A DNA stretch of 64,000 nucleotides from an uncultured delta proteobacterium (GTDB taxonomy: Bacteria > Desulfobacterota > Binatia > UBA9968): assembly GCA_963804165.1 (NCBI GenBank), contig CAWDPO010000011.1, forward strand, positions 1-64,000. Reading direction: 5' to 3'. Every line of letters starts with the position of its first letter. Position 1 is the stretch's first letter. Made by a program: the position numbers and the translations under genes. The notes under the pieces are model-generated. The model ran no database searches and was not told where the DNA came from. It saw nothing but the letters and a program-made list of their open reading frames with translations. Positions 21,602 to 53,844 of this stretch are shown in pieces.

Positions 21602-22639
21602 CTACTCCGCTAAGAGTTTTTTCAACCTGGCCACGACCTCTGGCGGCTGGGCGATCACTTCCTTCGCCAGCGTCGCGAGCTGCTCGCCACCGACAGCCTC
21701 CACCGGCCAGTTGCGTTTTTTTGCCTCGGCTAATAGTTCGGGATCTTTGAGTGTTTTATTCCAGGCGTCACGCAGAATTTTTATTCGATCCGCGGCCATG
21801 CCCGGCGGCGCGGTCCAGGGCCGGCCAAATTCATTGGGCGCCATGACCAGCGTGGCGAGGCGACGGTCGGTATCGCGGACTTTGTAACGATCCATCAAAT
21901 CGTAAAGCGTCGGCGTTTCCGGCAACGAAGAATCTCGTTTCCGACCGGTCTGCACGAACGGACGGGTGAATCCCTTCTTAAACCAGGTGATATGAGGCTC
22001 GCGGCCAAAGAACGCCGCGATGGTGATGAGCCGGCACTGCAACTCGCCGCGTTCGACCGCCAGGTCGATGTCGCCCGCACCTTGATAACCGGTGATGACG
22101 TTGAATTTTACTGCGAAAATCTCTTCGATCAGCTTGGGAATATGATAGGTCGTCGAGGCCGTTCCTGTAGAACCACACTTGGGTGGTTCGGCAGCCTTGC
22201 GTAGATCGTCGATCGTTTTGTACGGACTGTCACCGCGAAAAAAGAGTACGGCCTCGGTCTGTTCGGGGGTGCCGAGCCAGTTGAATTTCGACCAGTCATA
22301 CTGAACTTCTTTGCGGCCGATCAGTTGATCCATATAGATTCCCGGATTGATCGAGCCGAGAGTCAAGCCATCCGGCTTGGCGACATTGTAGACATAATTG
22401 GCCGCGATCACCGAACCGGCGCCCGGCATGTTTTGCACCGTGACGCTCGGATTGCCGGGTATGTGCTTTCCCAAATAGGTCGCGATGTGCCGCGTCCAAA
22501 GATCGTAAAGATCGCCAGCTTGCCCGCCGCGGATGATTCTTACCGATTTGCCTTGGAAGAAATTGTCCTGGGCATGAACTGAAAAGGAAAGCGCCATGAG
22601 CATGGCGCAAAGATTAAGAACCGTGACTGTTTTCTTCAT
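21602..22639 (-). CDS. TctC/Bug-like substrate-binding protein
   Basis: KHIPGNPSVTVQNMPGAGS, KPDGLT, PPKCGSTG. Confidence 0.88.
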   Translation of the reverse strand: MKKTVTVLNLCAMLMALSFSVHAQDNFFQGKSVRIIRGGQAGDLYDLWTRHIATYLGKHIPGNPSVTVQNMPGAGSVIAANYVYNVAKPDGLTLGSINPGIYMDQLIGRKEVQYDWSKFNWLGTPEQTEAVLFFRGDSPYKTIDDLRKAAEPPKCGSTGTASTTYHIPKLIEEIFAVKFNVITGYQGAGDIDLAVERGELQCRLITIAAFFGREPHITWFKKGFTRPFVQTGRKRDSSLPETPTLYDLMDRYKVRDTDRRLATLVMAPNEFGRPWTAPPGMAADRIKILRDAWNKTLKDPELLAEAKKRNWPVEAVGGEQLATLAKEVIAQPPEVVARLKKLLAE

Positions 22640-22694
22640 GTATTTTTCTCTGTCTCGATGCACTTGTCACTCGACATTTGACACTCGCCCCTTG

Positions 22695-23670
22695 TCACTT
22701 GATGACTTTATCCGCCCGCGCCAGCACTTTCTGCGGAATCGTCAGACCGATCTGCTTAGCGGTTTTGAGATTGACGAGAAACTCAAATTTCGTCGGCTGC
22801 TCCACAGGCAGGTCGGCGGGCCTGGCGCCTTTGAGAATCTTGTCGACAAAGTCAGCGGCGCGCCGGAATAGGTCCGCATAGTTCGGCGCGTAACTCATCA
22901 AGCCGCCGGCCTCGACAAACTCCGGGCTATGGTACATCGCCGGCAACCGGTTCTTTGCCGCGAAGTCCAACACTTGGCGTTGCTGAGTATTGATAAGTGG
23001 ACCTGAATTCGTAATGAGCGCCTGGGCGCCTTCCCTTTTCGCTTGCGCAAATGCGCTCTCAAAATCGTCAAGGCTTCGCACCTCAAGCGGTAGAAGTTTG
23101 ACTCCCAACGCCTTGGCGGCAGCCTCCATCTCTGTGAGATACAGGTTTCCCCTCGCCAACAGATTGCCCGAGGGAGGCCACCCGGGCAACTTTAGGGAAA
23201 GCTTCCTTGAGCAGTTCCAATCGTTTGCCATCTAGATCTTGCGCAATGTTGGAAAGTCCGGTGATATTCCCTCCTGGTCGCGCCAGGCTGGAGACAATCC
23301 CAGCTCCCACCGGATCGCTGGCGGCGCCGAATACGATGGGAATTGTCGTGCTGGCCTTTTTAGCAGCTAAAACGCCTGGGCCGGCAGTGACGATAACGTC
23401 AACTTTGAGCTGGACCAGTTCGGTCGCAAGGTCAGTCAGCCGTTCGAATTTCCCTTCCGCATATCGGTACTCAATCAGAATGTTTTTCCCTTCGACATAG
23501 CCGAGCTCGCGCAGCCGTTGGCGAAATGCTTCGACCCGGGGCAAAAAGAAGGACGAAGAGGTCGGGTTCAAAATTCCTATCCGGGGAATTTTCGCCGGCT
23601 GCGCCGCTGCGGGGAAACTAAGCGCTAAGAGCAAAACGCCAAGCGTAAGACGCACGATGTTCTTTCTCAT
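22695..23670 (-). CDS. ABC transporter substrate-binding protein (ABC_sub_bind type), frameshifted near 23170
   Basis: LRELGYVEGKNI.IEYRYAEG, SSLARPGGNITG, KRLELLKE, then GGLMSY...KILKGARPADLPVEQPTKFE. Confidence 0.85.
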
Positions 23671-23725
23671 ATGGTTGCTCCCGTTTCTTACCCTTTTCTC
23701 TTCGCCCTATGCGCGTTGCGACTAT

Positions 23726-24238
23726 TCATCGAATCACTCTATCCGCCCGCGCCAGCACTTTCTGCGGGATCGTCAGGCCGATCTGCTTGGCGGCCAGATC
23801 TGGCGCCATGAGGCTAAGCCCTGTGATATTCCCGCCTGGTCGCGCCACGCTGGAAACAAGCCCATCTCCTACTGGATCTAAAGCAATGGCGAATACCATG
23901 GGAATTGTCGCGCTCGCCTTCTTAGCAGCTAAACTGGTCGGGCCTCCGCCGGTGACGATGACATCAACCTTGAGACGGACCAGTTCGGCTGCAAGGTCAG
24001 GCAGCCGTTCGAGTTTCCCTTCGGCATATCGGTACTCAATGACAATGTTTTTTCCTTCGACATAGCCAAGCTCGCGCAGCCGTTGGCGAAATGCTTCGAC
24101 CCGGGCCGAAAGGCTGGACGCGGAGGACCCGATCAGAATTCCTATCCGGGGAATTCTCGCCGGCTGCTGCGCCTGAGCGAAAGGAGCAGTTAGCAGCAAC
24201 ATAGTTGTTAGTAACCAAAAAAGTGGTTTTGAACTCAT
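23726..24238 (-). pseudogene. ABC_sub_bind-type binding protein with a large in-frame internal deletion
   Basis: The N-terminal half (to GGNITGLSLMAPDL) is fused directly to the terminal AKQIGLTIPQKVLARADRVIR; about 150 aa are missing relative to the neighbour. Confidence 0.8.
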
Positions 24239-24270
24239 AGTATTCGCTTCTGTTCAGTCTGACGACTGAT

Positions 24271-24520
24271 TGGACAACTGCCACCTGATGTCGAACACTT
24301 AAGTGCCATATGATCCCGAACATAAGTGTCAATAAAGACAGACCATCTTGATCGTTAGACAGGATCATCTGAGATCCGAAATCCAATTTTCACCGTCGTA
24401 GAGCGATAGGTGTAATGGGTAGACTGGCTGATTTTAATCACCGAGAAAGCAACGTTCGACATCATGTGGCATGCACACGATTCAGGATTAAAGTGTTCGA
24501 CATCATCTGACATGTGTCCA
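24271..24520. mobile_element. 250-bp non-autonomous mini-transposon with TG...CA ends and Tn7/TnsB-like end architecture
   Basis: 5-bp direct repeat CTGAT at 24266-24270 and 24521-24525; 30-bp imperfect terminal IR; 22-bp sites at 24279-24300 and 24304-24325 and inverted at 24450-24471 and 24491-24512. Confidence 0.85.
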
Positions 24521-24615
24521 CTGATTACTGATCACTGGCAATAGTCACCGGACGCCCTATCCGCCCGCGCCAGCGCGTCGCAAAGTCCAGAACAGAAAAG
24601 CATTGTGGCGCGCGC

Positions 24616-24721
24616 GTCATTCCCGCGCACGCGGGAATCAGGTGACGGACTGTGTCCGTCATACCGTTGAAAAACGGTATCCAGGTGGATGGGTCTGGAT
24701 TCCCGTTTTCACGGGAATGAC
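24616..24721. repeat. Gene-less cluster of three family D palindromes
   Basis: Units 24616-24641, 24658-24684 and 24695-24721; the last is identical (27/27) to 16097-16123. Confidence 0.88.
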
Positions 24722-24766
24722 GGAAAATGCAACGACGCTTCTTAATCGAGCTTGTGAGGCAGCACA

Positions 24767-25688
24767 CTAGCGAAAAGTCTCCTTGATGTACCGATGGGCC
24801 GCAATGGCAGCGGTGGCGCCGTCGCCGGCGGAAGTGATCGCTTGCGCTGCCGAGTCCTGGCGGATATCGCCGGCGGCGTAGAGGCCATCGAGTTCGGTTT
24901 TCATCCAATTGTCCGTCGGGACGTGGCCGGTGTCGCTGAGCTGCACATGATTCTGCAAGAGCGTCGTGTTCGGCCGTAAGCCGACGTAAACGAAGAGACC
25001 AGCGAGTTCGACTTGCGATATCTCTCCCGATGCCAAGTCGCGTGCGCGAACAGCGCTGACAACCTCGTCGCCGAAAACTTCTTCGATGATGCTCCGATAG
25101 CGCGGCTTGATTTTAGTGTTACCCAGAACTCTCTGCTGATAGCTCTGCTGCGCGGAAAAGTTCTCGCCGTCGTGGAAAATCAAAACCCGCTCCGCGTAAT
25201 TCACCAGCGTCAGAGCCTCTTGCAGCGCCGAGTCGCCGCCGCCCACGACGCCGACAGTTTGGCCGTTATAGAGCGGTCCATCGCAGCTCGCGCAGTGGCT
25301 GACGCCGCGGCCGGCAGTTTTTCTTCGCCCGGAACGCCGAGGTTCTTGAGCGTCGAGCCGGTGGCGACGATCACGGCTTTGGCACGATGCTGTTCTTCAT
25401 CGGTAACGACCAACCAGATGCGATCCTGGGCTTCCAACCTTAAAACCTCGGCGCGCTGTAATTCCGCGCCCTGATCGGCGGCCTGGCGCTGCAGGTTGGG
25501 ACAAGGTCATATCCGGGAACACCATCAGGAAAACCGGGAAAGTCCTCGATCTTTTCGATGCTGATCAGATGACCGCCGGGGATGTTCGATTCCATTACCA
25601 ACGTAGAGAGGCCGTGGCGAGCGGCGAACAGCCCGGCGGTCAGGCCGGCGAGGCCGGAGCCGACGATTATGATGTCGTAGTCAGCCAT
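24767..25688 (-). CDS. trxB: Thioredoxin reductase-like FAD/NAD(P) disulfide reductase, frameshifted
   Basis: IIVGSGLAGLTAG, IVATGS, GRGVSHCASCDG (CxxC), VGGGDSALQEA, GLYAAGD...QAITSAGDGATAA, spread over several frames. Confidence 0.85.
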
Positions 25689-25707
25689 CCTTATTAACTT
25701 GCTTGCT

Positions 25708-25779
25708 GTTCAAGGTTCCAGGTTCAAAGTTCAAGGTGCGGGAAGGGGGACATTGAACATTGAACTTTGAACGTTGAAC
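25708..25779. repeat. Inverted tandem 7-mer repeat (GTTCAAR / TTGAAC)
   Basis: gttcaaggttccaggttcaaagttcaagg ... ttgaacattgaactttgaacgttgaac. Confidence 0.78.
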
Positions 25780-25789
25780 TCAAGAATTT

Positions 25790-27451
25790 TTATCTCCATT
25801 CATCGATCGAAACCGTTTTCTGATAACTGCAGCCCATGATGCGCCAGTAGCCGTTGGTTTCGCCGCCGACGACCACGACGTGAATTTCGTCGGGCTTGAA
25901 CATCTTGACCATTTCATCCGGGGCGGCTTTCAATTTGGACGCGTAGGGCTCCTCGCCGAAAGTCGCTCGCGGATAGATGTAATTTTGAATCAGCTGATAG
26001 TCCCAGTACTCGCCGGCCGGCATGAGCGAGTTCTCGTAAATCCACTGAATGAGTTTTTCCTTGGTGTCGAAGCCGCCGCGGTCGATATACTGCCGGGCCG
26101 CGATGGGATCGAGCAGAAAGGTCGGCGCGCTGTGGGCGTCCATGCCGCGCAGCATGTTGCGCACATGCTCGCGCCAATATTTTTCGCGCACGCCGAGAGT
26201 AAAGGCCGTCGAGCGGCAGCCGGTGAATATGCTTACCGTGCTGTCGCCCGGTTTGAAGCCATGCTGGGTGTGGAACGGCGTCCACGGGCTGCGTTCTTCG
26301 TTTTCGGCGAAGGTGACCGTGCCGTAGGCGTAGCCGTTGCCTTGGGAGCCCATGTAGCTGTCGCCGGGGATCGAACCGCCCTGGAGATTCTGCGACAGCA
26401 AACCATAGGCGCGCCCGATGGTCGCGTTGGCATGATTGTAGGGTGCCATCGCGCCGGTGCCGGAGTTCATCCCGATTTCATTGCGGATCGGGCCGTTGAC
26501 GACGACCATCGCCGCCATCGAGCTGGTCGTGCTGCCGCGTGCGCTTACGCCGCTCGCCGCGAGCGCCAGGATCACCGGAAAGTATTCCGGCCGAGCGCCG
26601 GCCATCACGGCGTTGACCGCGACCTTTTCGACCGTGAATTCCCAGTGCTGGCGAAATTGGTTGGAGCGCATATGCCCGGCGACTTCGTCCGGTTTGCGGC
26701 TGGTGTGCGCGAGCATTTCCGCTACTCGCTTTTCCGTCGGCAGAACGATCGGCAGCTTGTCCGTCCAATTGCTCTCGAGGAACAGACGATGCAGGTTATC
26801 GTCCGAGTCGGAGTCCACCAGTCGCGACGTCGAGCGCTCAAACTTAATTTCTTTGATTCGATCTCCCTCGGCGGGACGGGTGAGGCCTTCGATGACTTCT
26901 TGCATCACCGGCCGGCCGCTGATCGGACTTTTGCCTTCGACGTAGGCCCGCAGTTGTTCCGCGGTCTTGCCCATCACCGGCTGGGGCACGAAAGTGTAAC
27001 GCGCCTCGGGCATGCCGTGCATCCGGGTTACCGATTGCACCGCCTTCTCGAAGGCGTTGGTATGGATAGCGACGGTAGGCACACCGTACTTGCTATCGAG
27101 AGCGATTGCGTGCACGGCGACCGCCGGCGCGCAAGTGCTTCAATGACCGACACCGATGATGGCGCCGTCCCCGTTCGCCTTGATCATCTCCCAGGTTTTC
27201 GGATCGTCCTTGGTGTAGACGCTCGACATTTCCACAAGCTTGGTTTTGACCGAAGGCATGTGGTCGGCGAACCAATCCTGCACCTGGCGCAGGAAAAGCC
27301 CCGAGTCGTCGAAGCGCGGGTCGACCAGATAGACCGTCTTGCCGTCAAGGCTGTCCAAACGCGGCGCCATCGGTTTCGGCGTAATCTTTGGTGGAAAGCC
27401 CACCGGATTGAGCACTGTGATTTTTTCCGTGCCGTTAATGCCATCAGCCAT
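25790..27451 (-). CDS. UGSC-type selenoprotein (553 aa, Sec104 in a U-S-T-C motif) fused to a large C-terminal domain
   Basis: ORFs 27140..27451 and 25790..27115 are in the same frame, separated only by TGA 27140-27142; the read-through is IIGVGH-U-STCAPAVAVHAIALDSKYGVPTV; SECIS-like hairpin follows. Confidence 0.85.
27106..27134 (-). promoter_or_regulatory. Candidate bacterial SECIS hairpin
   Basis: TTGCG-C-GC-CGGC[GGTC]GCCG-T-GC-A-CGCAA; the apical GGUC loop starts 17 nt after the UGA. Confidence 0.72.
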
Positions 27452-27523
27452 GTTTGAATCCTCCTCGCTCTATTTATGATCTAGCTGGAAAGTAATCAAC
27501 CGGTTTTTTGCCTGCGTGCAAGG

Positions 27524-28585
27524 TTACTCGGCCAGAATCTTCTTCACTTTCTCGACCACCTCGGGGCTCTGGTCCATGACCTCACGCGCTAGTTTCTGCA
27601 GCTGCTCTCCCGGCGTGTAGTCGATATCCAGACTGCTCTTTCTTGCCTCGGCGAGCAGCTCGGGGTCTTTGAGTGCCTGGGCATAAGCGGCGCGCAGGAT
27701 CTTCACGAGTTCCGTGCGCGTGCCCGGCGGGGCGATCATCGCTCGGCCGAAATCATTCGCAGTAAGAACCGTTTCAGCGACGCTCCGGCTCACCTGCGGT
27801 GTCTTGTATTCGTTCATGATCTCCCAAATCGTCGGTGTCTCGGGCAATCTCGGATCGCGCGTGCGCGCGTCCTGCACTAGATGGCGGTCGTAACGCTTCG
27901 CGTGCCAAGTGATGAACGGTTCACGACCGAAGTGAGATGAGATGTCATGACCGCGGCAAACGACCTCACCCTTTTCCACGGCAAGATCGATTTCCTTCCC
28001 GCCCGAATAACCGACGATGATGTTGAATTTTGCGCCGACGGTTTCTTCTAGAACCTTGGGAAGAATGTAGCCCGAACTGGCAAAGCCCGAAGCGCCGCAC
28101 TTGGGCGGCTCCTTGGCCTTGATCACGTCGCCGATGGTTTTGAACGGTGCGTCGGCGCGAAAATAAAGCATCTGGGTCCATTTTTCCTGGGTGCCGATCC
28201 ACTCGAATTTGCGCACGTCGAACTTGACCTCTGTTCGTCCGATCAGTTGGGTAAGATAAAGACTGCTGTTCGGTATACCCACGGTGAGGCCGTCGGGTTT
28301 GGCCACGCTGTAAACGAAATTCGACGCCACCACGGAGCTCGCGCCGGGCATGTTTTGCACGATGATGTTCGGGCCCCCCGGAATAAATTTCGGCATGCTG
28401 CGGGCGAACATGCGCGCCCATTGATCGGACAAACCGCCGGCAGTGAATCCGACGATAATCCGAATCGTCTTGCCCTGGTAGTAGGGCTCGGTCTGCGCGG
28501 ATCCGGCGGCGCTAATAGTTAAGGAGAGTAAGAGCGCGAAAAGCGTTGCGGCAGTTTTTCGCGGCTTGGTGCGAAAATGTTTCAT
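27524..28585 (-). CDS. TctC/Bug-like substrate-binding protein
   Basis: IIVGFTAGGLSDQWAR, IIVQNMPGA, KPDGLT, PPKCGASG. Confidence 0.87.
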   Translation of the reverse strand: MKHFRTKPRKTAATLFALLLSLTISAAGSAQTEPYYQGKTIRIIVGFTAGGLSDQWARMFARSMPKFIPGGPNIIVQNMPGASSVVASNFVYSVAKPDGLTVGIPNSSLYLTQLIGRTEVKFDVRKFEWIGTQEKWTQMLYFRADAPFKTIGDVIKAKEPPKCGASGFASSGYILPKVLEETVGAKFNIIVGYSGGKEIDLAVEKGEVVCRGHDISSHFGREPFITWHAKRYDRHLVQDARTRDPRLPETPTIWEIMNEYKTPQVSRSVAETVLTANDFGRAMIAPPGTRTELVKILRAAYAQALKDPELLAEARKSSLDIDYTPGEQLQKLAREVMDQSPEVVEKVKKILAE

Positions 28586-28903
28586 TGGCTTCGATGGGTC
28601 CAGGATGCAGAGGAATGTCATGTTTTTCAGGTGCCTTTCCTTACCGCTTCCCAGCTCGCACGAAAGTGAGCGGCAATTTGCGACGCAGTTTACGGGCGCG
28701 GTCGAAGATTAAACGACGCGAGCGCCGCGCTTGTCAAGTAAAGGATCGGGCCTGATTCATTTCTCTGTCCCGTGACGACAGTTACCTCGATGGCAGCCGG
28801 CTATGGTTTCTCCTTGACGTTTAATTTCGATCTGCCTTATGGTGCAAACCGCGCGGGTTTCGTCGATTGGCTTGACGTTTACGAGTTAAGGATCGGAGGC
28901 GAT

Positions 28904-29935
28904 ATGAAAAAGACTAGCGTTTGGCTCTTGTCCATTCTCTTGTGGTCGGTCGAAGTCGCGGCACAGACTCCCTATTTTCAGGGCAAGACTATCAGGGTTG
29001 TGGTGGGTTATCCGGCAGGCAGCGCGCACGACTTGTGGGGGCGGATGATCGCGACACAGCTGACAAAGCATATTCCCGGCAATCCCGCCGCGATTGTTCA
29101 GAACATGGCCGGCGCGGGTTCGATGACCGCGACCAATTACATTTACAGCGTGGCGAAACCGGACGGCTTGACCCTTGGCGTCAATAACGCAGCACTTTAT
29201 TTCGAACAGTTGCTAAAGAGGAAAGAAGTTAAATACGACTGGGCGAAATTCACCTGGGTCGGCAGCACGACACCGACGAACTCGATCTTGTACATGTGGG
29301 CTAACAGTCCCTACAAAACAATTCACGATGTCCGCACGGCGGCGGTGCCGCCCAAGTGTGGCGCGACGGGCACGGGCAACACCGGATACTATCTGCCGAG
29401 ATTGCTCGAAGAGACCATCGGCGCAAAGTTTCAGATCGTCACCGGCTACGAGGGCGGGTCGAGTATCGAATTGGCGGTGGAGCGCGGCGAAGTCCAGTGC
29501 CGGGCCTTTTCCATCCAGGTCTTCTATGGGCGCGAGCCGTTTAACACGTGGCGCAGCAAAAATTTGGTGCGTGTTTTGGTTTACACGGGAAAGAAGCGCG
29601 ACCCGCGCATCCCCGAGACGCCGCTGCTCAGCGAACTGATGGATCAATACAAGACGTCGGATTTGCACCGGCGACTGGTATCGGTGATGAATGGCTCGGG
29701 GGAATTCGGCGCCGCGCCCATGTTTGCTGCGCCAGGCACGCCGCCTGAGATAACCAAACTCCTGCGCGCCGGTTATGCCAAAGGGTTGACCAGTCCCGAG
29801 CTGATGGGTGAGGCTAAAAAGCAAGGCCTCGACCCGGAGCTGATTCACGGAGACGAAATCGAAGCACTCTCCAAAGAAGTGCTGCACCAGCCGCCCGAAG
29901 TCATCGAGCTCATGAAAAAGGTCATGGGCGGATGA
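28904..29935 (+). CDS. TctC/Bug-like substrate-binding protein
   Basis: KHIPGNPAAIVQNMAGAGS, KPDGLT, PPKCGATGTG; ATG follows GGAGG. Confidence 0.88.
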   Translation: MKKTSVWLLSILLWSVEVAAQTPYFQGKTIRVVVGYPAGSAHDLWGRMIATQLTKHIPGNPAAIVQNMAGAGSMTATNYIYSVAKPDGLTLGVNNAALYFEQLLKRKEVKYDWAKFTWVGSTTPTNSILYMWANSPYKTIHDVRTAAVPPKCGATGTGNTGYYLPRLLEETIGAKFQIVTGYEGGSSIELAVERGEVQCRAFSIQVFYGREPFNTWRSKNLVRVLVYTGKKRDPRIPETPLLSELMDQYKTSDLHRRLVSVMNGSGEFGAAPMFAAPGTPPEITKLLRAGYAKGLTSPELMGEAKKQGLDPELIHGDEIEALSKEVLHQPPEVIELMKKVMGG

Positions 29936-29974
29936 AATCCGCCCACAGCTTTTGAAATTAGACGGGCTTTTTCA

Positions 29975-31069
29975 TTGGTGCATCGGGAAGAAAAAATCCC
30001 TCTTTCATCCCCTTTAGTAAAGGGGGAAAGAGGGGGATTTGGCTCGCTCGTTTGGCAGCCTTGCGGTGGTCGGCTCATTGTACTGCCTCTTCTCGGCCTC
30101 ATTTTGTTATCTTCGGTTGCCGTCGCGGCGAGCGCGCCGAATCGGATCAACATCGGCGCCGCTTCGGCAAGCAGCAGTATGCTCAGTCTGTGGGCGGCTC
30201 AGGAACAGGGTTTTTTCGCCAAGCACGGTATCGACGCGCAACTCATTCTCATCCGGGGCGGGTCGACGCTGGTGGCAAGCTTGCTGGCGGGCGAGATTCA
30301 GATGGCTTTCACGTCCGGGGTGTCGGTTTTGGGCGCCGCGGCGCAAGGCGTCGACGTGAAGATGCTCACATCGATATCCAGTCGAGTCAGCTGGAAACTG
30401 ATCGCCAATCCGCAAATCAAAAAACCGGAGGAGCTGCACGGCAAGCGCTTCGGCGTGCAGAGCATCGTCGGCAGCACGTGGATGTATGCGATGTTGGCTT
30501 TGGAGCAATTAGGCTTGGAACCTAAGCGGGATAACATTGCATTTTTGCCGATCGGCGATCCGGTGACCATCGGCCATGCGTTGGAAGCCGGTCGTATCGA
30601 CGCCGCGGTGCTCGATCCGACCTTGAGCCAACGCCTGGCAGGCAAGGGATTTTCGCAGCTGGTCGATCTGGCCAAGACCAATGCAACCTTTCCCGGGTTG
30701 GGTATCGGCGTGACGCGCGCTTATCTCGAGCCGCATGCGGTTACGATTGAAAAATTGGTCGCCGCGCTGACCGAAGGTCTGGTGTTCGTGCAGCAACCGG
30801 CGAACAAAACCCTCGCGCTGAAAATCCTGATGAAACATCTCCGCATCGGCGATCCCAGCGTGGCCGAACACGGTTATCAGGACCATCTGCTGACCCTGAA
30901 TCGAAAACCCTATCCGTCGCTCGATGGTTTGCGCAACGCGCAACGATTGATGGCGCAGCAAAATCCCAAGATCGCGACGCTAAAAGTTGAAGACTTGGTG
31001 GATTCGCGATTCGTGCGCAAGTTGGACGAAAGCGGCTTCATCGATCGACTCTATGGGGTGCTGCGCTGA
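29975..31069 (+). CDS. ABC substrate-binding protein, SsuA/NMT1-like (true start probably downstream of 30040)
   Basis: LWAAQEQGFFAKHGID, LHGKRFGVQSIVGST, DSRFVRKLDESGFIDRLY. Confidence 0.83.
   Translation: MVHREEKIPLSSPLVKGERGGFGSLVWQPCGGRLIVLPLLGLILLSSVAVAASAPNRINIGAASASSSMLSLWAAQEQGFFAKHGIDAQLILIRGGSTLVASLLAGEIQMAFTSGVSVLGAAAQGVDVKMLTSISSRVSWKLIANPQIKKPEELHGKRFGVQSIVGSTWMYAMLALEQLGLEPKRDNIAFLPIGDPVTIGHALEAGRIDAAVLDPTLSQRLAGKGFSQLVDLAKTNATFPGLGIGVTRAYLEPHAVTIEKLVAALTEGLVFVQQPANKTLALKILMKHLRIGDPSVAEHGYQDHLLTLNRKPYPSLDGLRNAQRLMAQQNPKIATLKVEDLVDSRFVRKLDESGFIDRLYGVLR
29994..30040. repeat. Palindromic repeat family G (AAATCCCTCT..CCCCTTT-AAAGGGGG..GGGGGATTT)
   Basis: 47-nt nested hairpin; a degenerate relative lies at about 60895-60930. 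Confidence 0.7.
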
Positions 31070-51240: not shown

Positions 51241-52527
51241 GTGGAACTAGAGCTTTTCGATTTTCACATCGACGCGATTCAGTGGGGAGATCGAACCTCG
51301 CTTGCGGGAGGGCAACTTAGTGTCAGCCTTGCCGAGATTCAAGAGCAGATCAAGGACTTGACCAGAAATATAAAATTGACCGCTGAACTCGCCCGTCCCG
51401 GCGAATCCAAGAGAATCGTGCATGTCCTCGACACCCTGATCCCGATCAGGAAAGTTCATGACGACCTTTGCACGTTTCCCGGTATCGATGTGCCGGCGCG
51501 GCTCGTGGGAACGGGACAGACTCAGCGGCTGCGCAACGTGCTGGTTACCATCGCGGGAAGTTTTCCCCATCCGGAGGCGATGACTCCGATCGAGAAACCC
51601 CGTGAAGGTATAATCGACATGACAGGCGTCGGGGCGCGTTACTCGCATGGATCGGATTATTTTCATTTGGTTCTAACTCTCGACGGTGAACCAGCGCTTT
51701 CAAACATAGCATTTGACCAGGCGCTAAGGAACATTGGAGTGCGCATCGCCCGTTATCTTGCCGGAGCCGAAAAAAGTGGCGCGGCGCCGGAGCGAAAAAA
51801 AGTTCACCTTGCTCAAGTTCAGAAGAAGCTCCCGAAGATTGTTCTTATATACCAGGTTCAGAGCCAGATTCCTCTGGTTAGGACTTTTTACTACGGCGAA
51901 GAAATCTCGAAAACCCTTCCTTCATTCGTTCATCCGAATGAGTTCATCGATGGAGCGGTGGTGAGCGGCACCTATAAAAGCGAGCGAAAAATTCCCACTT
52001 CGCTGCATTGTGCGAACCCTTTTATCGAGGAGATGCTCAAGCGGCACGGCGGCGAGTTGGAGTTCCTCGGTGTGATTCTCTCGCGCGGATATAACGACAG
52101 CTTTGAGCAGAAAAAGAAAATGGGGCTGTGGAGCGCTCGCTTGGCCAGATGTTTGGGCGCTGACGGCGCCGTGGCGATGATGGAGGGAACCGGCAATACG
52201 ACCGTCGATTTTATGCAAACCGTCAAAGCTTGCGAAGCGGAAGGGATTAAGACCGTAGCGGTTCTGCACGAGGATAACGGCGCCAAAGGCTATGAAAGGC
52301 CGCTGGTCGATCATCCGCGCGAAGCCGACGCGATGATCAGCCGTGGCAACCGCTCCGAGAAATTGGTTCTTGCCCCACTCGACCAGGTCATCGGAGGAAA
52401 GGAGATCGACCTCCATCTTAAACTCAAACACGATCCGCATAAGCCACTGTTTTTCGACCCGACGATCTTTTTCGGTGCGCATTGTCAGATGGGAGCCAGC
52501 GGCTTTCGTGCTGCCTTTGAAAGCTGA
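51241..52527 (+). CDS. Glycine/sarcosine/betaine reductase component B subunit-like (GrdE/PrdA family)
   Basis: ELARPGESKRIV, VGTGQT, EGIIDMTG.GARYS, HPNEFIDGAVVSG, LGADGA, EGIKTV. Confidence 0.82.
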   Translation: MELELFDFHIDAIQWGDRTSLAGGQLSVSLAEIQEQIKDLTRNIKLTAELARPGESKRIVHVLDTLIPIRKVHDDLCTFPGIDVPARLVGTGQTQRLRNVLVTIAGSFPHPEAMTPIEKPREGIIDMTGVGARYSHGSDYFHLVLTLDGEPALSNIAFDQALRNIGVRIARYLAGAEKSGAAPERKKVHLAQVQKKLPKIVLIYQVQSQIPLVRTFYYGEEISKTLPSFVHPNEFIDGAVVSGTYKSERKIPTSLHCANPFIEEMLKRHGGELEFLGVILSRGYNDSFEQKKKMGLWSARLARCLGADGAVAMMEGTGNTTVDFMQTVKACEAEGIKTVAVLHEDNGAKGYERPLVDHPREADAMISRGNRSEKLVLAPLDQVIGGKEIDLHLKLKHDPHKPLFFDPTIFFGAHCQMGASGFRAAFES

Positions 52528-52539
52528 GATGAAACCAAA

Positions 52540-53844
52540 ATGATCAAAGTTTTACACTATCTCAATCAATTTTTTGCCGGCATCGGCGGTGAGGAGAAAG
52601 CCGGACAGGAATTTTTCTTTCTGCCGAAGCCCGCCGGACCCGGTGTCCTGCTCCGCGACCTACTGAAGAACCAGGACATTGAGTATGCAACGGTGGTCTG
52701 CGGCGACAACTATTTTCATGAACATGAAGAAGCTGTTCTCGCTTCTTTGACGGAAGTGATGGCGCAGTTTGCGCCGGACCTGTTTGTCGCCGGTCCGGCT
52801 TTTCATGCGGGGAGATACGGGCTTGCCTGCGCCAAAACCGCCAGCTTCGTGCGCGAGCGTTGGGGCGTGCCGGCGCTGACAGGGCTCTATGAAGAAAATC
52901 CGGGAACGAAGGAAGTCGGCCGGCATGTCTTGGTGATCCAGACGGGTTCGTCGGCTGCTTCGATGCAAACCGCCATTAAGCGGTTCGCCGATCTGGCGGT
53001 GCTTTTGCTCCACAAGAACGTTGAAAACCTCGAGGCCTTCAAAGAGGAATTTTGTCTAAAGATCCCGCGGCGATTTACCGTTCAAGCCGCTGCTCCCGAC
53101 AGCGTACGAGCAGTGGAGATGCTGCTAGCTAAGCTGGGTGGCGCGGCTTTCGAGAGCGAGATCCCGCGAATCGAGGTGGCGCCCCATCCGGTTCCCGCCG
53201 CGATTCAAGATCTCTCTCAGGCAACTCTCGCCATGGTGACGGAAGGCGGTTTGGTGCCATTAGGCAATCCCGACCGGCTGGAAAGCTCGCGCGGAACGAA
53301 GTACTTCAAGTACTCGATCAAAGAACGCGACGACTTGAAACCGGGCGAGTTCGAAGCCATGCATACCGGTTACGACACCTCCACGGTCAACGCTGATCCC
53401 GACCGGCTTATTCCCGTAGACGCCATGCGGACATTGGAACGCGCCGGGAATTTCGGCAGACTTCACGATTACTATTATGTCACGACCGGAACCGGCGCCA
53501 TGCCTGCCAAGATGCAGGAGCTCGGCGCAGGGATCGCCCAGGAGCTTTCGGCCTCGGGTGTAAACGGAGTCGTTCTCACTGCGACGTGAGGGACCGGCAC
53601 GCGTAGCGGCGCTACGATCGCAAAAGAAATTGAGCGGAGAGGAATTCCGGTGGTGCTCATCACCTGTCTCGCCAATGTGGCAACGCAAGTCGGGGCATAC
53701 CGGATCATGAGCGGAAATAAATTTCACTACCCGGTGGGCAACCCGGATCTTCCGGCCGCCGAAGAAGCGAAGTGGCGCGCTGAGTTGCTGAGCGCGGCGC
53801 TGAAAATTTTACAAACCACAGTCGATGCCCCGACTGTCTTCTAA
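52540..53844 (+). CDS. grdB: Glycine/betaine/sarcosine reductase selenoprotein B-like (434 aa, Sec350)
   Basis: HYLNQFFAGIGGEEKA, CGDNYF, AGPAF.AGRYG.AC, DPDRLIPVD. In-frame TGA 53587-53589 reads on as GTGTRSGATIAKEIERRGIPVV into ORF 53650..53844. Confidence 0.87.
53602..53616 (+). promoter_or_regulatory. Candidate bacterial SECIS hairpin
   Basis: CGTAGC[GGC]GCTACG; 12 nt separate the UGA from the stem, and the loop starts with G. Confidence 0.62.

Follow-up and report, generated by a model that had tools for sequence, protein, structure and literature searches.

A long-form UGSC-family selenoprotein gene beside a thioredoxin-reductase-like gene in an uncultured Binatia bacterium

We analysed a stretch of 64,000 nucleotides (nt) from an uncultured delta proteobacterium (GTDB lineage Bacteria; Desulfobacterota; Binatia; UBA9968; assembly GCA_963804165.1, contig CAWDPO010000011.1, positions 1 to 64,000 of the forward strand), which is called the window below. 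On its minus strand lie a gene for a TctC-family solute-binding protein, two open reading frames (ORFs) annotated as hypothetical, and a gene resembling that of thioredoxin reductase (TrxR, trxB) (Table 1). A first-pass annotation, made from the letters alone, had joined the two ORFs through a TGA into one unannotated UGSC-type selenoprotein gene. The ORFs (27140..27451, 103 amino acids (aa), and 25790..27115, 441 aa, both on the minus strand) do share one frame, and when the TGA at 27142-27140 is read as selenocysteine (Sec, U), positions 27451 to 25790 encode a protein of 553 aa with U104 in the sequence GVGH-U-STC, as had been proposed. The motifs picked out at that stage (NWTDKLPIVLPT, KVAVNAVMAG, NATIGRA and FAENEE) were all located in the translation. 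Both the Pfam match and the Sec/Cys alternation described below agree with the proposal. The product is almost certainly a real selenoprotein and, judged from its sequence, a further member of the known, uncharacterised UGSC family.

Table 1. Features at the selenoprotein locus (positions in the window)
Feature	Position	Strand	Basis
Thioredoxin-reductase-like flavoprotein gene, CASC, with two 1-nt deletions near 25507 and 25316	24767..25688	-	
Long imperfect hairpin of GTTCAA-type repeats, in the gap from the selenoprotein stop to the trxB-like start	25708..25779	-	fold
Long-form UGSC selenoprotein gene, 553 aa and stop, read through TGA	25790..27451	-	
C-terminal domain without a name, residues ~205-553, ~350 aa	25793..26839	-	sequence searches, model
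UGSC domain, residues 13-172, predicted parallel alpha/beta; Sec ends strand 96-102 and precedes helix 107-121	26936..27415	-	PF24696, AlphaFold2 secondary structure, GRDB homology
SECIS-like hairpin; core stem-loop 27128-27112, GGUC apical loop 27122-27119	27106..27134	-	fold
In-frame TGA, selenocysteine U104 of the U-S-T-C107 motif	27140..27142	-	Sec/Cys codons in 160 loci
GGAGG ribosome-binding site, with the ATG (27451) 8 nt further on	27460..27464	-	read from sequence
TctC-family solute-binding protein, upstream	27524..28621	-	PF03401, E 8.7e-17

We read the TGA as a Sec codon because TGA and Cys codons alternate at this site among related genes, synonymous sites behind it are frozen in Sec forms only, the genome has the Sec machinery, and all four UGSC genes of the genome have one in-frame TGA each. 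In a survey of 160 related loci, 80 from species-representative genomes and 80 from metagenome contigs, the codon at the U104 site was TGA in 124 and TGC or TGT in 36; Trp or any other codon was seen in none of the 160. The aligned site is Cys (GVGHCSTC) in 15 of 15 aligned full-length database homologs (546-569 aa, 65-72% identical), so that the Cys/Sec pairing at position 104 expected in the first-pass annotation is observed in both data sets. The nearest database relatives (81-92% identical) are entered as 441-aa truncations, as expected when a gene caller takes the TGA for a stop. The machinery that the first-pass annotation presupposed is also present: in this genome, which is 81% complete, selD, selA, selB and tRNA-Sec (anticodon TCA) were all detected. 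The genes selA, selB and selD form a single cluster (C16:139949-144339), selD has an in-frame TGA of its own, and the selB model was matched in two separate parts (2-346 and 527-580).

Downstream of the TGA, a CGGC/GCCG stem bears a GGUC apical loop that begins 17 nt after the UGA, and folding reproduced both the loop and the spacing that had been read from the letters. This hairpin resembles a selenocysteine insertion sequence (SECIS). Of 80 sequences, 79 have the same 16-nt core, GCGCCGGCGGTCGCCG. The third-position entropy of codons +4 to +9 was 0-0.07 bits in 111 distinct Sec forms, in contrast to 0.79-1.33 bits in 29 distinct Cys forms, and the flanking codons vary alike in the two sets. 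Thus, in the six codons from which the GGUC hairpin is built, synonymous change is suppressed in Sec forms only, and the constraint therefore acts on the RNA, only where Sec is inserted.

The N-terminal domain scored 91.5 bits against the Pfam family UGSC (PF24696; gathering score 25), and close homologs are named 'UGSC family (seleno)protein' by NCBI. With this family (PF24696, NF041046; metagenome surveys of Zhang and Gladyshev) the protein shares the UxxC redox motif and the alternation of Sec and Cys. It differs in having U-S-T-C rather than the literal U-G-S-C, in its long fused form, and in its score of 64.1 bits against the NCBIfam equivalog NF041046, which is below the cut-off of 125; the three paralogs in the same genome have D-U-G-S-C. 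By these comparisons, the 553-aa protein belongs to a divergent long subfamily of UGSC. It had been called hidden, which is right for this assembly only, since NCBI already names such proteins and a fusion was reported in 2008. According to the available text of the papers concerned, UGSC has since 2005-2008 been one of the selenoprotein families met most often in aquatic metagenomes (PMC2398784; PMC13188914), and a 2026 review, in the part available, still lists it without a function; the literature searched thus agrees, as far as its available text goes, with the first-pass statement that UGSC-type selenoproteins have no assigned function. The AlphaFold2 model of the full-length protein is of high confidence (pLDDT 93.7, pTM 0.91). 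A Foldseek search of the PDB with this model gave nothing at E<=0.001, and the weak matches were Rossmann- or flavodoxin-like. In the accessible part of an earlier paper the UGSC fold is described as 'likely Trx-like' (PMC2398784), whereas the domain modelled here is predicted to be a parallel alpha/beta fold.

The rest of the protein was at first taken as a domain of roughly 440 aa fused to the Sec domain; the fusion stands, and the domain is shorter (Table 1). This C-terminal domain (C-domain) had no match in Pfam, NCBIfam or the PDB sequences (none at E<=1 in a PDB profile search). Pfam searches at E<=10 over 30 members gave nothing consistent, and those with ten divergent or longer relatives gave UGSC only. 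The C-domain family has 4021 representatives (50% identity, E<=0.001), 415 of them at E<=1e-30, and some of its members stand alone as proteins of 350-400 aa; Arg, Glu, Asp and Asn residues are invariant in it, and no Cys, His or Lys is conserved. AlphaFold2 modelled the C-domain alone with confidence (pLDDT 88.7), and Foldseek found nothing in the PDB at E<=0.001 with this model. The best hit, a class I fumarate hydratase (E 0.018, probability 0.38, TM 0.24), was not accepted as a match. The modelled fold is one that the structure search does not place, and it is not thereby a new fold.

The two domains keep company across genomes. A C-domain homolog, fused, downstream or upstream, lies no more than 1.5 kb from UGSC in all 30 loci examined in a phylum sample, 28 of which are from other genomes, and we consider it very probable that UGSC and the C-domain form an obligate two-domain unit. 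Two of the four UGSC modules of this genome are fused (the window gene and one on contig C33), and in the other two, both on contig C17, a D-U-GSC protein of about 200 aa is followed by a separate C-domain gene of 350-363 aa. The modules outside the window (loci L185-L187) have the D-U-GSC motif and lie at C17:361981-363910 and C17:375645-377814 (split) and C33:42048-43700 (fused); one of the split modules has a 159-aa ORF between its halves. In a phylum sample of 151 genomes, 18 had UGSC matches, 56 in total; there is one TGA in 50 of these matches, the read-through frame is at least 535 aa long in 39, and some genomes have 6-14 copies. In the 2008 Global Ocean Sampling paper, a fusion of UGSC with 'Unknown_1', a conserved domain lacking a function, was already presented (Figure S1A of PMC2398784). 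Going by the accessible part of that paper, Unknown_1 is probably the C-domain described here, the identity of the two being presumed.

We compared the UGSC domain with the GRDB family (PF07355), to which the Sec-bearing subunits of the glycine/sarcosine/betaine reductases (GrdB) and D-proline reductase (PrdB) belong. When a profile of 50 UGSC sequences was aligned by hhalign with 21 C-terminal regions of the GRDB family, the result was 97.1% (P 7.7e-11), with Sec placed on Sec. Seven full-length GRDB proteins alone gave 96.7%, and masking of the Sec/Cys residue left 96.1%. Eight unrelated families from the same loci, used as controls, gave 0.1-4.5%, and thin UGSC and GRDB profiles gave 24.8% only. 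The homologous region spans a helix, a strand, Sec, a helix, the GIP strand and the hP.G motif, and the local pattern around Sec (strand, U, helix, G-I/V-P, strand) is common to both. Thus, at the level of profiles, the UGSC domain and the part of GrdB/PrdB that bears Sec are homologous. In the proline reductase system, as described in the available text of one paper, the Sec of the 25.7-kDa PrdB attacks the PrdA-bound substrate, the U-to-C variant is inactive, and PrdB is regenerated by a separate protein, PrdC (PMC11229817). By analogy, UGSC and its C-domain may correspond to the small Sec subunit and the tightly bound substrate-binding partner of PrdB/GrdB. They differ in that the partner is not a PF09338 pyruvoyl proenzyme and has no conserved Cys, and the organisms studied here are lineages of soil metagenome-assembled genomes, not Stickland fermenters.

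True members of the reductase system are also encoded in this genome, as four pairs of GrdE-like and GRDB genes (one on contig C45, two on C11 and one on C10), one of which lies in the window. There, a GrdE/PrdA-like gene (51241-52527, plus strand; PF09338, E 2.8e-94) precedes a GRDB-family gene (52540-53841, plus strand) that reads through a TGA at 53587-53589, giving U350 in LTAT-U-GTGT, a second unannotated selenoprotein. Many genomes of the phylum sample (for example loci L222-L246) encode proteins of 150-250 aa that match only the C-terminal half of GRDB and have C-G-x-C or C-P-F-C at the Sec-equivalent site. Such small, PrdB-sized proteins may bridge GRDB and UGSC.

The gene downstream of the selenoprotein gene was described in the first-pass annotation as a CASC-motif TrxB. 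It is a pyridine-nucleotide disulfide oxidoreductase gene and the motif is there; the rest of that description needs correction, since the frame is broken twice in this assembly and the partners in relatives fall below the cut-off of the thioredoxin reductase equivalog TIGR01292. Two such partners scored 326.8 and 276.7 bits, just under the cut-off of 343.45, and the pieces in the window scored 189.7, 60 and 34 bits, while a canonical trxB on another contig of the genome scored 410 bits. The neighbouring flavoprotein is, by these scores, a paralog of the canonical thioredoxin reductase. As in the TrxB-Trx and AhpF-AhpC systems, TIGR01292 is matched end to end (in the relatives), and the CASC and GGGDSA motifs are kept, CASC in the window gene as well as in relatives; against AhpF models the partners scored 222-257 bits. 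Unlike in those systems, the neighbour is below the equivalog cut-off, exists beside a canonical trxB, and would have an acceptor whose predicted fold is not that of thioredoxin. The canonical trxB reads AHRRDQLRA where the partners read FHQGESFSA, FNREESFSG, IHRGPCPSA and similar sequences. This HRRxxxR stretch of thioredoxin reductase is the one that we take to bind the 2'-phosphate of NADPH, and because it is altered in the partners, their electron donor may be NADH.

Adjacency of a TrxR-like gene was counted in loci that extend 500 nt or more downstream, excluding 18 loci with less and 4 missed by the first pattern. The gene is directly downstream on the same strand in 67 of the 138 loci, namely 48 of 110 with Sec and 19 of 28 with Cys, and is elsewhere in the locus in 7 more. 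The pair is kept between the Sec and Cys lineages even though the identity of the partners drops to 41-50%. By record label, the gene is adjacent in 24 of 27 loci from Binatia or "delta" and in 8 of 18 from Chloroflexota, and no other neighbour is comparably conserved across the loci. On the contig of the window there is no thioredoxin-family match, in accordance with the first-pass remark that the operon has no free thioredoxin. We also predicted the complex of a Cys-form UGSC domain with its own TrxR-like neighbour. The prediction passed weakly, with an ipSAE of 0.58 (runs 0.58, 0.62 and 0.35) as compared with 0.00 for the best of three controls, a contact agreement of at least 23% and a partner pLDDT of at least 85. 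Of 80 solved complexes 58 attain the mark used, as do 2 of 110 mismatched pairs; those that attained it with a score of 0.60 or under were only 7 of the 80 solved complexes and both of the mismatched pairs that passed. A direct contact between the TrxR-like protein and UGSC is thus suggested by a weak in-silico pass. We judge it fairly probable that the TrxR-like protein is the reductant of the UGSC enzyme.

The genes around the related loci suggest catabolism of imported organic acids. Each of the three paralogs in this genome is followed by an NMT1-like binding protein, and the flanks include four Amidohydro_2 genes on C17 and a cupin and a UbiD-like decarboxylase on C33. Two recurrent layouts were seen for Cys forms, for which one example of each cluster was annotated: a divergent MarR gene followed by long UGSC, TrxR-like, MFS, NMT1 and ABC ATPase genes, and a cluster of malonyl-CoA decarboxylase (MCD), MatB-like synthetase, long UGSC, TrxR-like and GntR genes. 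MatA and MatB genes are beside Cys forms in 5 and 8 of 33 listed loci, respectively. A malonate-related substrate is not proved by this, since the contigs may be close kin. The Cys-form pair near malonyl-CoA decarboxylase (PF05292), MatB-like malonyl-CoA synthase and GntR genes was seen on the metagenome contigs of loci L120, L128, L130, L140 and L171. Cys forms also occur in Alphaproteobacteria-labelled records, including a contig of 4.96 Mb.

The explanation of these observations that we favour is that the gene encodes a cytoplasmic two-domain selenoenzyme that is re-reduced by the adjacent TrxR-like flavoprotein. The N-terminal UGSC domain, of common stock with the Sec-bearing part of PrdB/GrdB, would carry Sec104 and Cys107 as a redox pair at the start of a helix, and the C-domain, an obligate partner fused here and encoded by a separate neighbouring gene in paralogs, would most likely hold the substrate, probably a small imported organic acid. 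In this scheme the selenolate would attack the bound substrate, Cys107 would resolve the adduct to a selenenylsulfide, and the TrxR-like flavoprotein, with its CASC disulfide, FAD and a pyridine nucleotide, would re-reduce the selenenylsulfide directly, without thioredoxin. The comparisons above show the recoding by Sec, the homology and pairing of the domains and the conservation of the gene pair; the chemistry, the direct transfer of electrons and the class of substrate are inferred. Taken as a whole, this two-domain scheme is in our judgement somewhat better than evenly balanced. That its reaction is the reductive cleavage of a small organic acid is a more tentative suggestion, and rather doubtful. 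It is still less likely, though conceivable, that the family is an unrecognised class of selenoenzyme, a pyruvoyl-independent offshoot of proline/glycine reductase B that would bind its substrate by a new fold, have a TrxR-like reductase to itself and, in aerobic bacteria of soil and water, reductively cleave bonds in organic acids taken up by the cell, and whose up to 14 copies per genome would reflect different substrates.

Several results weigh against the two-domain scheme. The trxB-like gene of this assembly is split over three frames (25688-25440, 25437-25210 and 25330-24767). Seven relatives have intact genes of 305-308 aa, relative to which the window lacks one base at each of the two sites in Table 1, and in one metagenome contig from a relative an additional G follows 25315. 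No sequencing run was found with more than 0.20 of the words of the stretch, nor were any RNA or protein data, and the matching contigs come from relatives. We lean to assembly error rather than decay of the gene, seeing it as the likelier cause, because the ABC_sub_bind gene of the window, the GRDB gene on C10 and selB are also in pieces. Further, a TrxR-like gene was not found in 60 of the 110 Sec loci, and it is adjacent in none of the 21 loci labelled Rokubacteria/Methylomirabilota. The folding energy of the SECIS-like hairpin is ordinary for DNA so rich in G+C (z = -0.96; 36 of 200 shuffles gave an equal or better fold), and neither a SECIS family nor any other family of Rfam matches it. 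Covariation was not seen in it: 6 of 11 pairs are invariant, 3 vary on one side only and none on both sides, so that with an invariant core no covariation could be counted. The PF07355 model did not match the 553-aa protein at E<=1. The C-domain, tried as a homolog of GrdE/PrdA-like proteins or of the N-terminal half of GRDB, showed no detectable kinship to either (hhalign 0.1% and 0.7%, respectively), and therefore the pyruvoyl chemistry of Prd/Grd is not transferable. The neighbours vary between lineages and no substrate can be named from them. Finally, the literature searched, to the extent of its available text, describes no UGSC function, GrdB/PrdB relation, TrxR pairing or experiment.

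An alternative explanation would be that the TGA is a true stop or a sequencing error, leaving two separate genes or a pseudogene. The assembly does have indels, and the trxB-like gene, the ABC_sub_bind gene and the GRDB gene on another contig are all fragmented. However, 124 loci, taken from many assemblies made independently, share this TGA and have the frame intact on both sides, the remaining loci carry Cys, the SECIS constraint is confined to Sec forms, and the Sec machinery in the genome is complete. This possibility is extremely remote and effectively refuted. Another alternative accepts the selenoprotein and sees in it a thiol/selenol oxidoreductase of stress defence, reducing peroxides, electrophiles or disulfides in the manner of AhpC/AhpF, with the TrxR-like protein as the recycling enzyme and the C-domain only shaping specificity or oligomerisation. 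The UxxC motif, the dedicated TrxR/AhpF-like reductase with its AhpF scores, MarR-family regulators divergently upstream in 7 of the 33 listed Cys-form loci, and the grouping of UGSC with redox proteins in reviews, as far as their available text goes (PMC13188914; PMC2398784), would all fit such a role. By the profile and structure comparisons, however, the kinship of the domain is with PrdB/GrdB rather than with peroxiredoxin or thioredoxin folds, the 6-14 paralogs in some genomes fit a diversification of substrates better than a single defence role, and the neighbours are mostly transport and catabolic genes. We regard a role in stress defence as unlikely.

The chain from NAD(P)H through TrxB to the Sec-Cys enzyme, as drawn in the first-pass annotation, is plausible and only partly supported: it gains from the conserved gene pair and the weak pass of the complex, and loses from the broken gene and the missing adjacency; likewise, the expected neighbourhood with trxB is kept across the Sec/Cys divergence but is lacking in about half of the loci and in the whole Rokubacteria/Methylomirabilota set. 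A real selenoprotein might instead be reduced by thioredoxin or another carrier, the adjacency of the TrxR-like gene reflecting co-regulation only. Besides the incomplete adjacency and the broken gene in the window, the three full thioredoxin genes elsewhere in this genome and the regeneration of PrdB by a different protein, PrdC, in the accessible account of that system (PMC11229817), would be in line with such an indirect route. On the other hand, the gene pair is kept from Sec to Cys forms while the partners diverge, and there is no thioredoxin cluster among the conserved neighbours; an indirect reductant seems to us improbable, to about the same degree as a role in stress defence.

Under the two-domain scheme, the link to PrdB/GrdB, the obligate partner domain and the dedicated TrxR-like reductase make the orphan UGSC family testable. 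The Cys forms need no Sec machinery for their expression, and they can be assayed together with the flavoprotein encoded next to them. Gene prediction, as this case also shows, breaks such genes at the TGA.

The long hairpin between the selenoprotein gene and the trxB-like gene is unusually stable (-26.7 kcal/mol, z = -3.13; 1 of 200 shuffles equally stable), and may be a terminator or attenuator, or else a repeat element. The upstream TctC-like gene is on the same strand, as first noted, and matches its family well (Table 1), but the association is not conserved beyond the closest relatives. A close ortholog is upstream only in these few relatives and the family is multiplied across genomes, and TctC was therefore rejected as a functional partner. 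Solute-binding genes are dense in this part of the window, where three TctC-like genes, one NMT1-like gene and pieces of ABC_sub_bind lie within 10 kb (21602-31069). The pieces are three adjacent or overlapping ORFs (22695-24238, minus strand) that match parts 3-122, 4-137 and 151-293 of the ABC_sub_bind profile (PF04392), and they have the appearance of one gene, or two, disrupted by frameshifts in the way of the trxB-like gene.

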